Shown one piece after another: positions 12,228 through 18,238 of a DNA stretch of 64,000 nucleotides. Below the pieces are notes generated by a model that did no database searches, was not told the DNA's origin, and saw only the letters and a list, made by a program, of their open reading frames with translations. The stretch covers positions 64,001 to 128,000 of the forward strand of contig JBMNIW010000006.1 in NCBI GenBank assembly GCA_050951325.1, in the 5' to 3' direction. This DNA is from Clostridia bacterium (GTDB lineage Bacteria; Bacillota; Clostridia; UBA1212; DUPL01). How positions within the stretch are numbered: the first letter of the stretch is position 1; each line of letters starts with the position of its first letter. The position numbers were made by a program, and so were the translations under genes.

Positions 12228-13370
12228 TTATTCCACGCTCTTTTTAGCTATCTCAAGGTATGAAAACTCTTTCGCGCCTTTTTCCTTTGCAATTATCTTC
12301 ATATTCTCATAAAATTCCTTGTCTTTCAAAACCAAACTTATCTTCTCCCTTATTTCCTCCACGTTGTCTTCGTAGAGAAAAAGGCAGTTTCCTCCCATAT
12401 CCACATGCTCGTTGCCTTCCCAGTACTTTACTATCATAGGTATTCCAAGACCCAGTACCTGTTCCCAGAAAACCGAGTGTCTTCCCGGAAAAACAACCAA
12501 ATCCGCCGAAGAAAAGTATTTATATGAGTCGAATGCATTTATCCACCCAATATACTGGACATTACCATGTGCTCTTTTTAATACTTCTTCCTTTAAATCT
12601 TCCTCCACCGAGCCAAAAACAATAAGTTTTGCATTATCAAGAGTAGATACTGCATCCATCAAAAGAAGAGTCTGCTTCTTTGCATAATCTATCTTTCCAC
12701 CAGTCATTATTAAAAAATCATCTTCACCAATGCCATATTTGGTCCTTATCTCTTTTCGGGCATTGCTGTTTAAAGCTTCTTCCACCTTGTCTGTATCCGC
12801 ACCCATGAGTAAAAGACCAAGCTTGTCGTCCTTAAGCTTGTATACTTCTTTCAAAAATCTAACTCTTCCGGGTGTTACCCCATAAATCTTTTCAGCATGC
12901 TTGTATGCAAGCTTTGCATACCGCTTCCAAATAACTCCGTGAAGAATGTATCTGGACAGAAAGTTCGTGGCACTGTTTGAAAAGTCAGCATGGTTGTCCA
13001 CATACATCTTTACATAGTCATTCCTTTTCTTGTACTTGACAACCTCCGTCAAATCCAGAAATTGAACACCATGAACAAACAATACATCCGGGTTTATCCT
13101 TTCAATTGTTTCATACAAGCCATCATACCTTCTAAACTTGTCCTCGTAATCTCCCTTTTTAACTTTCAAACGATATAATTTCACACCATCGGAGTTTACA
13201 TACTCTTTCTTGTCTGATATTGCAATGGTTCCTTCCTGGGTGAAATAATAGGGCGAAGCTATCATGGAAACATCCATGCCCAGCTTCGCCTGATATTTCG
13301 TCAGCAGATTTTCCTGATAGCTGAAATTATCCGTTACCGGTCCGCACAAACAAACATGGCACACTTTCAT
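12228..13370 (-). CDS. GT4 (GT-B) glycosyltransferase
   Basis: GGKIDYAKK, YFSSADLVVFPGRHSVFWEQVLGLGIPMIV; overlaps folA stop. Confidence 0.82.
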   Translation of the reverse strand: MKVCHVCLCGPVTDNFSYQENLLTKYQAKLGMDVSMIASPYYFTQEGTIAISDKKEYVNSDGVKLYRLKVKKGDYEDKFRRYDGLYETIERINPDVLFVHGVQFLDLTEVVKYKKRNDYVKMYVDNHADFSNSATNFLSRYILHGVIWKRYAKLAYKHAEKIYGVTPGRVRFLKEVYKLKDDKLGLLLMGADTDKVEEALNSNARKEIRTKYGIGEDDFLIMTGGKIDYAKKQTLLLMDAVSTLDNAKLIVFGSVEEDLKEEVLKRAHGNVQYIGWINAFDSYKYFSSADLVVFPGRHSVFWEQVLGLGIPMIVKYWEGNEHVDMGGNCLFLYEDNVEEIREKISLVLKDKEFYENMKIIAKEKGAKEFSYLEIAKKSVE

Positions 13371-13888
13371 TTGGTTTTACCTGTCTTTTCATATATAGTA
13401 AATTTGAAAGAAAAATCTCCTCCCGTATCTGTCTCGGGATTTGTTCTAAACTCTTCACTTTCATAAACGCATATCCAATCATCAGATTCGTCCAGATTTG
13501 GAATATACGTGTCCTTGTCAAACGACTTGTCAAATTTGGTAACATATGCTTTCGTACAATAAGGAAGGAGCTGGTTGTACACACTTGCCCCGCCTATGAC
13601 AAAGATATCCTCTTTGTTGTAGGATTCAAGCTTCTTAAACAAGTCATCAAGAGAGTTTGCAACAATTGCACCCTCGACCTTGAAATCAGGGCTTGGATTT
13701 AAAATTATGTTAATCCTGTTTTTCAATACCTTGCCGCCTGGAAAGGTCGCCAAGGTATTAGTGCCATACACAACAATCTTGCCAGAAGTAACCTTTGCAA
13801 AGTTTCTGAGGTCTTCCCTAACCCTGGCAAGCAAATCTCCCTTGTATCCTATACCCCAGTCCGTGTCTACTGCCACAATCAGATTCAT
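13367..13888 (-). CDS. folA: dihydrofolate reductase
   Basis: IVAVD..WGIG, LKNRINIIL, FVIGGASVY, DTYIP; follows thyA. Confidence 0.93.
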   Translation of the reverse strand: MNLIVAVDTDWGIGYKGDLLARVREDLRNFAKVTSGKIVVYGTNTLATFPGGKVLKNRINIILNPSPDFKVEGAIVANSLDDLFKKLESYNKEDIFVIGGASVYNQLLPYCTKAYVTKFDKSFDKDTYIPNLDESDDWICVYESEEFRTNPETDTGGDFSFKFTIYEKTGKTK

Positions 13889-13903
13889 AAAACTGTCCTT
13901 TCA

Positions 13904-14734
13904 TTAAATAGCAACAGGAAACCTGCCTATCTTCTCACCATGCATGTAGTTCAATACCGTAAAGCTCTCCGGCGTGAATTTATAGAAATCGTCTATGGAT
14001 TCATCCAGTAAAACCGTCGGTGATTCATACTCCTCTCTTGCAAGAAGATCCTCTATTATCGGTATATGGCGATCATAAATGTGAGCATCAGCAATTACAT
14101 GTACCAGTTCTCCCGGCTTTAGGTTGGAAACCTGTGCAAGCATAAGAACCAGTGCTGCATACTGGGCTACATTCCATGCATTGGCCGCCAGCATATCCTG
14201 GGAGCGCTGGTTAAGTATGGCACAAAGTCTTCCATCCACCACATTAAAAGTCATGGAGTAAGCACAAGGGTAAAGTGCCATTTCATTAAGGTCCGCAAAA
14301 TTGTACATATTAGTCATGATTCTGCGGCTGTGGGGATTGTTCTTAAGGTCATAAAGAATCCTGTCCACCATGTCGAACTCCCCTTCTTTGTACTTGTGCT
14401 TTATTCCCATCTGATATCCGTAGGCTTTACCAATGGAGCCGTTTTCATCCGCCCACTGGTCCCAGATTCTGCTGTTCAAATCCTTTATGTTGTTGGATTT
14501 CTTCTGCCAAATCCAAAGTATTTCATCTACAGCTTTGTGGAAGCTAATAGGGCGGATAGTAATTAGCGGGAATTCCTTTGACAAATCGTATCTATTTACA
14601 ACTCCAAACTTCTTTATCGTATATGCAGGAGTACCGTCTTCCCATCTGGCTCTAATATTCTCATCCTTTACCCATACTCCATTATCTAGTATATCCCTGC
14701 ATGTTTCCTTGAATGTCCTGTCCAGTATTCCCAT
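13904..14734 (-). CDS. thyA: thymidylate synthase
   Basis: GKAYGYQ, SRRIM, MALYPC, QRSQD, HIYDRH motifs. Confidence 0.96.
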   Translation of the reverse strand: MGILDRTFKETCRDILDNGVWVKDENIRARWEDGTPAYTIKKFGVVNRYDLSKEFPLITIRPISFHKAVDEILWIWQKKSNNIKDLNSRIWDQWADENGSIGKAYGYQMGIKHKYKEGEFDMVDRILYDLKNNPHSRRIMTNMYNFADLNEMALYPCAYSMTFNVVDGRLCAILNQRSQDMLAANAWNVAQYAALVLMLAQVSNLKPGELVHVIADAHIYDRHIPIIEDLLAREEYESPTVLLDESIDDFYKFTPESFTVLNYMHGEKIGRFPVAI

Positions 14735-14743
14735 TTCAACCCC

Positions 14744-16687
14744 CTATATTCTCTTCTCATCTATTTCTTCTTTAATCATTCTGCAGAATTCATCAACTGC
14801 AATACTGCCCATTTCTCCTTGCTTTCTGGATCTTACACTAACTTTTCCTTCCTCCAGCTCTCTATCCCCAGCTACCAGCATGTATGGAATCTTCTCCACC
14901 TGTGCTTCCCTTATCCTGTAGCCAATCTTTTCATTCCTGTCATCAAGCTCGGCTCTTACACCTAGCGCCTTAAGCTTCCTTACAACCTCTGCACAGTAGT
15001 CCGCCTGCTTTTCAACAATTGGCATGACTCTTACCTGCACCGGAGCAAGCCATGTCGGGAAAGCACCTGCATACTTCTCTATCAAGAGAGCAAGGGTTCT
15101 TTCATAGCATCCAATTGAAGTACGGTGAATGATATATGGGTGTTTCTTTGTTCCATCCCTGTCCACATAGACCATTCCGAATCTCTCTGCCAGCTGGAAG
15201 TCGATCTGGATTGTAATAAGGGTATCTTCCTTGCCGTGGACGTTCCTAATCTGAATGTCAAGCTTCGGACCATAGAACGCAGCTTCACCCACGCCTTCAG
15301 TATACTCCAAGCCCGAATTGTCAAGGATGGTCTTCATTGCACTTTGAACATTCTCCCACTCCTCAGGACTTCCAATATATTTCTCCTTGTTCTCAGGATC
15401 CCATTTTGAGAACCTGAAGAACACATCCTCATGCAGTCCAAGTGTCTTCAACATGAAGGTTGCAAGATCCAGACAGTCTCTGAACTCCTCTTCAAGCTGC
15501 GAAGGAGTAACTATCAAATGTCCCTCCGAAATGGTAAACTGTCTTACTCTGATAAGTCCATGCATTTCACCGGAAGACTCGTTTCTAAACAAAGTCGAAG
15601 TCTCAGCATACCTTATTGGAAGGTCCCTGTAACTTCTAGTCTTTGTTAGGTAAGCCTGAAACTGGAATGGACAAGTCATTGGCCTTAGTGCAAGTACTTC
15701 CTCTTCGTCAGCCTTTTCAGGGTCGCCAATAATGAACATGCCATCACGGTAGTGGTACCAATGCTGTGATATCTTGTATAAATCAGACTTTGCCATAAAT
15801 GGTGTTTTTGTAATCTGGTAACCACGCTTTTCTTCTTCGTCTTCCACAAAACGCTGCAGAATCTGCAGTATTTTAGCTCCCTTTGGCAGCATAATAGGTA
15901 GTCCTTGACCAATATAATCTACGGTGGTAAACAGCTCCAACTCACGTCCCAATCTGTTGTGGTCTCTTTTTCTCGCCTCTTCAAGCTTCTCAAGATACTC
16001 CTTCAAAAGTTTCTTGTCAGGAAAGCTTGTTCCGTAGATTCTCTTAAGCATCTTGTTCTTTTCATCACCTCTCCAGTAAGCTCCTGCTGTCTGGATAAGC
16101 TTGAAAGCCTTCACTCTTCCTGTATTATCAAGATGCGGCCCGGAACACAAATCCACAAACTCTCCCTGTCTGTAAAAGGATATTTCCGCATCCTCAGGCA
16201 AATCATTGATAAGCTCCACTTTGTATGTTTCCCCTAGCTCGTTCATATACTCTATAGCCTTGTCCCTAGGCAGAACGAACCTTTCAATAGGGAGCTTCTC
16301 GGAAACAATCTTCTTCATTTCTTCTTCTATTTTAACAAGATCTTCACTCGTAAATGTTCCATCTATATCAAAGTCGTAATAAAATCCATTCTCCGTAGCA
16401 GGACCTATTGCCAAGCGTACATCTTTATACAGTCTCATAACTGCCTGGGCCAATATGTGGGACGTTGTGTGTCTGTATGCCTTTTTCCCTTCCTCACTGT
16501 CGAACGTCAAAATGTTTAATGTGCAGTCCTTATCCAGAGTTGTGCCAAGCTCAGTAACAACTCCATCAACTTCTGCAAGCACTGCATTTCTTGCAAGTCC
16601 ATGACTAATCATTTTAGCAACTTCAATAACACTAGTTCCTTTTTCTACTTGTATTTTGGATCCATCTTTCAAAGTTACGTCTATCAT
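14744..16687 (-). CDS. thrS: threonine--tRNA ligase
   Basis: TGS domain, HTTSHILAQA, DLCSGPH, RPMTCP, GLIRVRQF, FYGPKLD, IHR. Confidence 0.98.
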   Translation of the reverse strand: MIDVTLKDGSKIQVEKGTSVIEVAKMISHGLARNAVLAEVDGVVTELGTTLDKDCTLNILTFDSEEGKKAYRHTTSHILAQAVMRLYKDVRLAIGPATENGFYYDFDIDGTFTSEDLVKIEEEMKKIVSEKLPIERFVLPRDKAIEYMNELGETYKVELINDLPEDAEISFYRQGEFVDLCSGPHLDNTGRVKAFKLIQTAGAYWRGDEKNKMLKRIYGTSFPDKKLLKEYLEKLEEARKRDHNRLGRELELFTTVDYIGQGLPIMLPKGAKILQILQRFVEDEEEKRGYQITKTPFMAKSDLYKISQHWYHYRDGMFIIGDPEKADEEEVLALRPMTCPFQFQAYLTKTRSYRDLPIRYAETSTLFRNESSGEMHGLIRVRQFTISEGHLIVTPSQLEEEFRDCLDLATFMLKTLGLHEDVFFRFSKWDPENKEKYIGSPEEWENVQSAMKTILDNSGLEYTEGVGEAAFYGPKLDIQIRNVHGKEDTLITIQIDFQLAERFGMVYVDRDGTKKHPYIIHRTSIGCYERTLALLIEKYAGAFPTWLAPVQVRVMPIVEKQADYCAEVVRKLKALGVRAELDDRNEKIGYRIREAQVEKIPYMLVAGDRELEEGKVSVRSRKQGEMGSIAVDEFCRMIKEEIDEKRI

Positions 16688-16712
16688 ATTGAAACCTCTT
16701 TAAAATATACTG

Positions 16713-16729
16713 GGTGGCTACAATCCACC
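16713..16729 (-). promoter_or_regulatory. putative thrS translational operator (tRNA-Thr UGU anticodon stem-loop mimic)
   Basis: mRNA GGUGG-AUUGUAG-CCACC: 5-bp stem, 7-nt loop with U-UGU-A at the anticodon positions, -42..-26 from the ATG. Confidence 0.55.
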
Positions 16730-16738
16730 TGTCTCTTT

Positions 16739-16767
16739 ATTGTACGCTCAATTCAGCAAAAAATCAA
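16739..16767 (-). promoter_or_regulatory. proximal sigmaA-type promoter for thrS
   Basis: TTGATT-N17-TACAAT on the minus strand. Confidence 0.6.
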
Positions 16768-16894
16768 GAATTTGACTTCTAGTCTTAAAGTTATGGTGAT
16801 TATCTCATTACTCTGTTCTTCTCCCTTGAGCGTCTTCCGTCATTACATATTTCTGTTTTCCTGTTTTCCAAATGTTTCTTTACCTCTAAATCAA

Positions 16895-16923
16895 ATTGTA
16901 TACCACATACTGGAATATTTCAA
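16895..16923 (-). promoter_or_regulatory. distal sigmaA-type promoter upstream of thrS
   Basis: TTGAAA-N17-TACAAT on the minus strand. Confidence 0.55.
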
Positions 16924-17002
16924 TGCATTTACTTGTTTATTTTTATCCATAAATACAAGTTTAACGGTAATTAAAAAAAACATATACTGTATTCAAAGTA
17001 TA

Positions 17003-17188
17003 GCCATCGAACGAGTTTTGTTGTTGGCTTTTGTAGCGGCAATTGCCCTTGCGTCGTTTTCCGCAAAAAGTGCGGCACTAAGCCCCAAAGAAATGGCAAA
17101 GTTGCAGAAAAAGATTGAATATTTCAAAGATTAAAGTAAAGATAAGTATGCAAAATTGGAGTTAGAGAAGGAACCTGAAGTAAATTAG
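17003..17188 (+). pseudogene. possible 3' remnant of a membrane protein gene
   Basis: Protein-like LLLAFVAAIALASFSAKSAALSPKEMAKLQKKIEYFKD*SKDKYAKLELEKEPEVN* with no RBS or good start and an internal TAA; ends just before a terminator. Confidence 0.35.
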
Positions 17189-17220
17189 AAAGAGCTGTTG
17201 CCAATTGCAACAGCCCCTTT
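17189..17220. terminator. intrinsic terminator
   Basis: gctgttgc-caatt-gcaacagc flanked by A/T runs. Confidence 0.75.
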
Positions 17221-17221
17221 A

Positions 17222-18238
17222 TTAATAACTGTAATCCACATTATTCTTTGGTTCCATATCAAAATCAAACGGGAACTCAATATATTCCGTACCATATAGT
17301 CCTGAGATATAATGGTGTTTGACTTGCAAATCCTCAAACATCCATTTCTTTGTCTCATCTGTTCTGAACTGTTTGTTGGTGTTCGCCCAAACCCATTCAG
17401 GTATAGGCCACAAACATACCTTTGGATTAATCTTCACATAATGTGCTTTCTGAAGACCAGCCTGACCATGGTGGGACATCTGCACCATGTCACTTTGTAT
17501 GGTATCTTTATACTCCCTTATTAGCTTTGAGCCAGCTTCCGCACCCGCATCACCTGTGAACAGAACTGTCTGGCCCTCAACTTCCATGCGGAAGATAAGG
17601 GATGAGTTGTTTATGGGATTGGCTGTAATTTTCTCATCAGGCACCTGAAGAATTTCAAACTTAACATTGTCTACTTCAATGATGTCGCCAACCTGGACAC
17701 CCTCATATTCCTGATATGCATTTTCACCGAACAGAGTGTTATATGCAGCTCTGAATCTGTCCATGTATGGTTCACCATTGGGTTCATACTTGGCTATGAA
17801 CTCATCAGACGGGAAATTGAAGTACACATTGTTTACAGTAAACTTATCATTCTTTTGTTCCACCATCTTTACAAACTCATAGTAATGATCGTAATGGGCA
17901 TGGGAGATGAACCAGGCATCGATAACCGGATGTTCCTCTCCACTAATCTCCTGCAACTCTTCCAAAAGATAAGCAGGAGCATTCAATCCATGACCATCAA
18001 TTCCTCCGTCAATAACAATGAGCTTGTTGTTTTTTGTCTTAATGACGTAACACATCATAAGGCTAAGTTTTTCAGGAACCACCTGATAAAGAATGGTCTT
18101 GCCTTCAACCTCGCTGGTTGATTCCGGTGTTGCTGTAGCCTCAGGATCACTGTCATTCTTTTTGTTATTCACATCGCAAGATGCTAATGTAAATATGAAT
18201 ACTAAACTAAGAACCAAAGATAAAACTCTTTTCAACAT
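17222..18238 (-). CDS. MBL-fold metallo-hydrolase lipoprotein (ComEC/Pce-like)
   Basis: Lipobox LASC; IDGG, SHAHYDH, NNSSL, FTGD, SHHG motifs. Confidence 0.85.
   Translation of the reverse strand: MLKRVLSLVLSLVFIFTLASCDVNNKKNDSDPEATATPESTSEVEGKTILYQVVPEKLSLMMCYVIKTKNNKLIVIDGGIDGHGLNAPAYLLEELQEISGEEHPVIDAWFISHAHYDHYYEFVKMVEQKNDKFTVNNVYFNFPSDEFIAKYEPNGEPYMDRFRAAYNTLFGENAYQEYEGVQVGDIIEVDNVKFEILQVPDEKITANPINNSSLIFRMEVEGQTVLFTGDAGAEAGSKLIREYKDTIQSDMVQMSHHGQAGLQKAHYVKINPKVCLWPIPEWVWANTNKQFRTDETKKWMFEDLQVKHHYISGLYGTEYIEFPFDFDMEPKNNVDYSY

Follow-up and report, generated by a model that had tools for sequence, protein, structure and literature searches.

The thrS operator of E. coli is the textbook example of a synthetase that controls its own translation through tRNA mimicry. 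This operator is about 120 nt long, its key G is located at -32, and a crystal complex of the system is available as 1KOG. In Firmicutes, the usual and known control element of thrS is the T-box.

According to several reports, the ThrRS of E. coli attaches to two mimics of the anticodon arm upstream of the Shine-Dalgarno (SD) sequence via an anticodon-like G and U, its N-terminal portion collides with the 30S subunit's platform, tRNA-Thr competes for the enzyme, and changing the anticodon of the mimic to that for Met shifts the control to MetRS (PMC7373986, PMC9976931, PMC3858243). Repression needs the N-terminal domains of ThrRS (according to sections of PMC7373986), and the threonine identity elements include anticodon nucleotides (according to sections of PMC9976931). 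Synthetases that bind anticodon-like stem-loops of their own mRNAs have also been described for yeast, among them AspRS and HisRS (PMC9976931 and PMC6542539); these cases are alike in principle, but they are eukaryotic, concern other enzymes and other sites on the mRNA, and show no homology to the element discussed here. Among the results listed by full-text searches, with subscription-only literature outside their scope, there was no paper on such a thrS element in a Firmicute and only E. coli and yeast work. Here we describe a hairpin in the thrS leader of a member of the Clostridia that resembles the anticodon arm of tRNA-Thr. The hairpin is real and conserved, and it is very probably functional.

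The thrS locus and its leader hairpin

The window, i.e. the whole 64-kb stretch of DNA that was analysed, contains the sole thrS copy of the 3.08-Mb genome (one full match in a search of this genome), followed by two further genes on the same strand:

14744..16687, minus strand: thrS, threonine--tRNA ligase, 647 aa, full length (NCBIfam TIGR00418, 654.5 bits)
13904-14734, minus strand: thyA, downstream of thrS after a gap of 9 nt
13367-13888, minus strand: dihydrofolate reductase gene, downstream of thyA after a gap of 15 nt

The three genes (13367-16687) appear to be co-transcribed, hence a control exerted in the thrS leader might extend to the thymidylate/folate genes. The encoded ThrRS consists of the TGS, SAD, class II core and anticodon-binding domains (Pfam PF02824, PF07973, PF00587, PF03129), with TGS at residues 2-61 and SAD at residues 169-218; the N-terminal domains that E. 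coli ThrRS requires for repression are thus present. Moreover, the protein can be aligned from end to end with the solved ThrRS 1nyq, the E. coli enzyme 1qf6 and the 1kog sequence.

An intergenic region of 534 nt separates thrS from the stop codon of an MBL-fold gene at 17222. Within it, two small hydrophobic open reading frames overlap on opposite strands of the window (16993-17137), one of 44 aa on the minus strand (TTG at 17127) and one of 38 aa on the plus strand (TTG at 17018), neither of which matches Pfam or has a clear SD; at a depth of 66.5, an RNA-library contig (X2) covers 16997-17400. The following features were located in the thrS leader:

16695..16699, minus strand: Shine-Dalgarno sequence AGAGG, at -12 to -8, separated by 13 nt from the hairpin and by 7 nt from the ATG
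16713..16729, minus strand: hairpin like the anticodon arm of tRNA-Thr, GGUGG-AUUGUAG-CCACC, 5-bp stem and 7-nt loop (evidence: sequence, folding, conservation)
16718..16724, minus strand: loop A-U-UGU-A-G of this hairpin, with U33, the anticodon-like UGU and A37; its G at 16721 is -34
16739..16767, minus strand: candidate proximal promoter-like site TTGATT-17-TACAAT (consensus scan, 9 of 12 matches)
16895..16923, minus strand: candidate distal promoter-like site TTGAAA-17-TACAAT (consensus scan, 10 of 12 matches)
16739..16752, minus strand: second, weaker hairpin AUUG-AGCGUA-CAAU, judged to lie outside the element

The minus-strand sequence of the leader is ...TTGATT-17-TACAAT-aaagagaca-GGTGG-ATTGTAG-CCACC-cagtatattttaa-AGAGG-tttcaat-ATG. 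With the A of the start codon (16687) as reference, which also gives the -34 of the loop G, the hairpin with its arms GGTGG (16729-16725) and CCACC (16717-16713) occupies -42 to -26. The hairpin, its loop and the G at -34 are thus present in the sequence just as originally described.

The isolated hairpin folds at -6.2 kcal/mol and is the only element of the leader that formed in every context folded. The fold of the long leader is no better than that of shuffled sequences (z = -0.22), and an 8-bp long-range complement in it (ACGCUCAA / UUGAGCGU) was set aside as within chance. The anticodon arm of the genome's own tRNA-Thr(UGU) is ACUGA-CUUGUAA-UCAGU, so that loop positions 33-37 (U-UGU-A) are identical in the mRNA hairpin (AUUGUAG) and in the tRNA (CUUGUAA). 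The stems, GGUGG/CCACC and ACUGA/UCAGU, are unrelated, which excludes a remnant of a tRNA gene. A terminator was rejected as well, since the stem has just 5 bp and a U-rich tail is missing in the related hairpins of L025, G107, G417 and G144, which are introduced below. From the genome-wide density, 0.0037 hairpins with at least 5 bp and a 7-nt NU[UCG]GURN loop are expected by chance per 60-nt leader, and 0.0013 with the exact loop NUUGUAN.

Much of this arrangement recalls the E. coli operator. The hairpin belongs to the thrS leader and lies shortly upstream of the SD, it is a stem-loop like the anticodon arm of tRNA-Thr whose key bases are G35 and U36 and whose G is at -34, and the same set of ThrRS domains would take part in a proposed competition between tRNA-Thr and mRNA for the enzyme (compare sections of PMC7373986 and PMC9976931). 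However, the E. coli operator has two anticodon-like domains with a single-stranded joint that match the enzyme dimer, whereas the present leader offers one 5-bp hairpin, and the linker between hairpin and SD is longer and probably flexible. There is one conserved mimic only and no counterpart to the pair of domains 2 and 4. Common descent with the enterobacterial operator finds no support either, as the stems are unrelated even among the examples from Clostridia. Judged from its sequence, the element is thus no member of the E. coli operator family, having one domain and no evident homology. The label "E. coli-type", which had been attached to it, describes a possible way of working but neither the two-domain architecture nor a shared origin.

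Promoters, transcript extent and the second hairpin

The proximal promoter-like site had been expected to produce a leader of ~45 nt. The site is indeed present, but such sites are no commoner in this region than in shuffles (4 found compared to 2.9 expected). The short leader is doubtful, because contigs from all four anaerobic-digester RNA libraries cover the leader and reach upstream of this site, although contigs place no start, strand or RNA template; their ends are at 16771, 16866, 17012 and 17235. The distal promoter-like site would yield a leader of ~200 nt, and the contig end at 16866 (run X3) gives a weak hint to it. No strain variants occur within 16688-16771, a result that is uninformative at such low divergence.

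The second hairpin (16739-16752) had been considered as a further operator domain showing the other Thr anticodon, CGU. It exists in the sequence, but its stem has just 4 bp and its loop 6 nt, a G stands in place of U33, the hairpin overlaps the -10 box, and no counterpart was found in the relatives L023 and L025. Being unconserved and without U33, it does not supply a second domain, so that the two-domain architecture of E. coli is absent here.

Absence of a T-box

The prediction of a thrS leader without a T-box agrees with the Rfam searches. With Rfam 15, no family reached its gathering score in the whole 64-kb window, and even at E<=10 the region 16500-17400 had six weak matches, all to other families and none to the T-box (RF00230). 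The same model gave 12 T-box matches elsewhere in the same genome, ten of them above the cut-off, and at E<=0.01 it recognised the T-box in 3 of 3 thrS leaders used as positive controls and in 0 of 10 hairpin-bearing loci. A gathering-score run on the loci of 20 relatives was not used as evidence for absence, since it missed obvious T-boxes whose scores of 67-84 bits lie below the cut-off of 93.

The mimic stands where most Clostridia have a T-box. The genomic position is the same, and so presumably is the need to adjust the supply of ThrRS to the status of tRNA-Thr, but the present leader lacks a specifier codon, a T-box sequence and a terminator/antiterminator pair. Since the loop presents an anticodon and not a codon, the reader would be an enzyme, unlike in the T-box, where it is the tRNA. 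A T-box remnant was rejected for the same feature: the loop corresponds to the anticodon, an ACN codon is missing, and the related hairpins of family f2 have the stem GGCGG instead of GGUGG.

Conservation within the order

The GTDB order comprises 45 genomes, 41 of which had a thrS match, and 35 thrS leaders were read. The element occurs in three of these 35 leaders, namely in the present one (family f1) and in L023 and L025 (family f2). The two f2 genomes (G006, G010) belong to two genera and both carry GGCGG-GUUGUAG-CCGUC; it ends 24 and 19 nt ahead of the ATG. When the three leaders are aligned (A1), 14 of the 17 hairpin positions are invariant, among 32 invariant columns in all; outside the hairpin only the promoter-like hexamers, the SD and the ATG are conserved, and the flanks have diverged. 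Between the present hairpin and that of f2, pair 3 changed from U-A to C-G, i.e. in a compensatory manner, and pair 2 from G-C to G-U. The ThrRS proteins share only 72% and 71% identity with those of L023 and L025. That a 17-nt block has been kept across such a distance, with stem changes that preserve the pairing, speaks for selection acting on the stem as well as on the loop. Conservation had been named at the outset as the test for a hairpin so small, and in both f2 leaders the GU of the loop is kept and the stem covaries.

The distribution within the order is nevertheless patchy. In quick trees of thrS, the present gene and those of L023 and L025 fall into different sub-clades, and the nearest relatives of the present gene, L017 and the g11 group, lack the element. 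A T-box is present in some members, for example L021, L022 and L029 to L033. Other close relatives have neither mimic nor T-box: these are g2 (L020, L126) and f3 (L019, L024), where no recognisable leader element was found, and L017, which has an unrelated 12-bp 5' hairpin at the same place. One g2 genome has an additional second thrS under a T-box. The patchy occurrence among T-box-bearing relatives looks convergent with E. coli; of the two origins originally proposed, convergent or retained, retention from an ancestor shared with E. coli is very unlikely.

Two further leader types were observed. In g15 (L018, L127, L128), a conserved 5' hairpin GGCGGUAUG-UUNNG-CAUACCGC is followed by a U-run and has no resemblance to an anticodon arm; its outer stem is similar to the stem of the f2 mimic. 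In L040 and L041 (genus g12), the last 130 nt before thrS contain a terminator and a GGUGAAAUUGACCCGCG stretch, which resembles an aberrant T-box core and had escaped the regular expression used to divide the leaders.

Recurrence in other Clostridia

For a wider comparison, leaders from the order were pooled with those from a scan of genome contigs, a pattern scan of metagenomes and an even sample of the class. The genome-contig scan comprised 80 thrS loci, 74 with an assignable start; its best thrS relatives are just 70-73% identical, and most have a T-box. The metagenome pattern MI[NDK]V.LKDGS, which reflects the N-terminal codons, gave 116 matches. Eighty of these were fetched, nearly all of them T-box thrS loci from other clades, and no close relative of the present leader was among these 80. 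In one metagenome locus, L200, the candidate GGGUUGC-AUGGUAU-GCAACCC was not counted because its loop may close to a triloop. The class sample comprised 400 genomes; of the 398 that were scored, 357 had a match, and the 150 best-listed places yielded 144 leaders. After removal of duplicates, 311 unique thrS leaders remained.

The last 90 nt of each leader were screened for hairpins with a stem of at least 5 bp, a loop of 7 or 9 nt and a U-NNN-A centre. The division into leaders with and without T-box followed a regular expression for the T-box core, which was checked by Rfam on only 16 loci, and gave the following counts:

T-box leaders: 221 leaders, 389 hairpins, 52 with a U-NNN-A centre, 0 with an NGU centre
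Non-T-box leaders: 90 leaders, 96 hairpins, 13 with a U-NNN-A centre, 6 with an NGU centre

Shuffled non-T-box leaders contained on average 0.67 NGU hairpins; at least six were reached in 0 of 300 shuffles and at least four in 4 of 300. The six NGU hairpins are the present one, the two from f2, one from G107 (family f32), and those of G417 and G144 (family f41, genus g97), and all six end 17-25 nt before the AUG. The loop signature therefore recurs before other T-box-less thrS genes, as U-UGU-A or U-CGU-A in two further families of Clostridia.

The hairpin of G107 is GGAAUUUCU-GUUGUAG-GGAAGUUCC with a 9-bp stem. In a follow-up of f32 with nine leaders read, the element was found at just one of the two thrS copies of G107, and the other copy has a T-box. 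The mimics of g97 are GUUCUUC-AUUCGUAGC-GAAGAAC in G417 and GCCUUUC-GUUCGUAUA-GAAGGGC in G144, with the loops AUUCGUAGC and GUUCGUAUA, respectively. G438 of the same genus has GUCUUUC-...-GAAGGAC, with a compensatory change of C-G to U-A. In the follow-up of f41, 56 of 67 genomes had a thrS match and 30 leaders were read; the element was found only in four leaders, all from g97, where it is thus present in four of the five genomes examined. The linker between hairpin and SD measures 13 nt in the present leader, 2-13 nt in most other lineages and 24 nt in G438. Among the mimics of G107 and g97, only that of G438 does not end 17-25 nt before the AUG; it lies further upstream because a second hairpin, UCGGAU-UUA-UCCGA, with a U-run is inserted between mimic and SD (L400).

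Two sets of hairpins outside the enrichment test were also noted. Three Oscillospiraceae leaders (L066, L074, L083), which were left out of the test, have a T-box-less thrS with an 8-bp hairpin abutting the SD, whose loops UUUGUCC, UUUGUUU and (A)UUUGUUC(A) keep U33-UGU but have a pyrimidine at position 37; this hairpin may be a variant mimic. In a Nanoarchaeota MAG (L118), CUGU-GUUGUAG-GCAG with the loop of f2 and G107 and a 4-bp stem overlapping the SD stands 12 nt before the thrS ATG, a match that may be due to chance.

Covariation and evolutionary history

Eleven hairpins were placed in an ungapped alignment (A2), eight rows of which came from a screen that required U33, G35, U36 and A37. 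Because all rows were chosen as hairpins with this loop, the figures for invariance and pairing are partly given by construction: only U33, G35 and U36 are invariant columns, and 85.2% of the cells are paired, compared to 52% in shuffles (0 of 500 reach the observed value) and 37-55% with a slid partner. Position 34 is U or C, as among the Thr isoacceptors, and U36-A37 is kept in 8 of the 11 hairpins. The stems have nothing in common between lineages, and both sides change in seven of the eight pairs. The independent evidence consists of the enrichment test and the compensatory changes within lineages. Moreover, the 75 paired cells include 13 G-U or U-G wobbles. Such pairs form on the sense strand of thrS only; hence, this is a structure of the thrS RNA rather than a palindrome in the DNA.

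How many independent lineages are represented is a separate question, and the count is small, with about four events. The thrS genes of the present genome, f2, G107 and G417 belong to one subtype with 66-76% identity, so that part of the recurrence may reflect shared descent or gene-linked transfer. G144, G439 and G438 have the other deep thrS subtype, which is 55% identical to that of G417 from the same genus, and yet nearly the same leader hairpin, which suggests from the sequences that the gene body may have been replaced in g97 behind a retained leader. The genes of G417 (L403) and of G144, G439 and G438 (L410, L399, L400) also begin with a similar N-terminus and share a UUCGUA-loop hairpin despite their different subtypes. 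In the quick trees, T-box-bearing genes are interleaved throughout the thrS tree. The element may be old and often lost, it may have been gained repeatedly, or it may have moved with and without its gene; each of these histories demands selection for the U-NGU loop.

Proposed mechanism and alternative explanations

We propose that this one hairpin mimics the anticodon arm of tRNA-Thr and is bound by ThrRS, which thereby represses the translation of thrS, and would give this reading about even chances. When ThrRS exceeds uncharged tRNA-Thr, the C-terminal anticodon-binding domain of the free enzyme would bind the loop via G35 and U36. The bulky dimer, held 13 nt upstream of the SD, would hinder binding of the 30S subunit and lower the translation of thrS, and competition by tRNA-Thr for ThrRS would relieve the block. 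The logic would be the same as for the E. coli operator, with a single binding site. We infer that ThrRS binds, that it competes with the ribosome and in which direction the effect goes. It is not certain that the 30S subunit would be sterically excluded, since the 5-bp hairpin is short and the 13-nt linker to the SD probably flexible; the bound dimer might exclude the subunit or act instead through the stability of the mRNA.

It is rather unlikely, though worth considering, that selection acts on an RNA structure that does not bind ThrRS and that shields the mRNA against 5'-end-dependent decay or gives the ribosome standby site its shape. Transcription from the proximal promoter would place the hairpin 2-4 nt from the 5' end, and the unrelated 5' hairpins at the same place in g15 and L017, the former with its f2-like outer stem, would fit such a role. 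However, a stabiliser could do with any loop, whereas the loop is here conserved more strongly than any other part and has a Thr anticodon in every lineage. The predicted distance to the promoter varies, being about 3 nt in the present leader, 11 nt in L025, 17 nt in L023 and 48 nt in G107, and the RNA-library contigs reaching beyond the proximal promoter also speak against a hairpin at the very 5' end.

The partner could also be another factor that recognises the anticodon loop of tRNA-Thr, or a complementary RNA, without any autoregulation by ThrRS. The machinery for t6A37, for example, acts on tRNAs with U36-A37, the dinucleotide kept in most hairpins of A2 (8 of 11), and nothing in the sequence identifies the binding partner. 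Nevertheless, we consider such a partner improbable: the element occurs specifically ahead of thrS, the variant from Oscillospiraceae still has U33-UGU with a pyrimidine at position 37, and the known precedent for a thrS mimic is ThrRS itself (as described in parts of PMC7373986).

With a similarly low probability, the resemblance is fortuitous, i.e. a small hairpin was kept by slow divergence or weak structural selection and its loop happens to read UGU. A hairpin of 17 nt is indeed small, the genome contains 137 NUUGUAN hairpins with a stem of at least 5 bp, the lineages are few, and the first examples were already known when the cross-lineage screen was set up. Against these points stand the low number expected per leader, the conservation of the hairpin between diverged flanks including compensatory change, the NGU centres in 6 of 13 hairpins of non-T-box leaders versus 0 of 52 in T-box leaders, at a level that the shuffles did not reach, and the constant distance of 17-25 nt to the AUG.

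Finally, the inverted repeat GGTGG-N7-CCACC lies just downstream of a promoter-like site and might serve a dimeric transcription factor as its DNA operator at the thrS promoter, which is very improbable, because the stems differ wholly between lineages while the centre is kept, the wobbles would be A-C mismatches in a DNA palindrome or on the other strand, and the position is tied to the AUG and not to the -10 box.

Implications for thrS control in Clostridia

Beyond the single locus, we tentatively suggest, at somewhat less than even chances, that single-hairpin mimics form a recurrent class of ThrRS operators in Clostridia, which originated repeatedly or travelled with the gene and took over where the T-box was lost. 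A one-hairpin mimic replacing the T-box in several lineages of Clostridia would show that this control logic evolved repeatedly. Such elements would explain the regulation of thrS in genomes where T-box scans find nothing, and with 17 nt, compared to about 120 nt in E. coli, they would provide a much simpler model operator. If this holds true, autoregulation by anticodon mimicry would be no enterobacterial peculiarity but a general and easily evolved solution.
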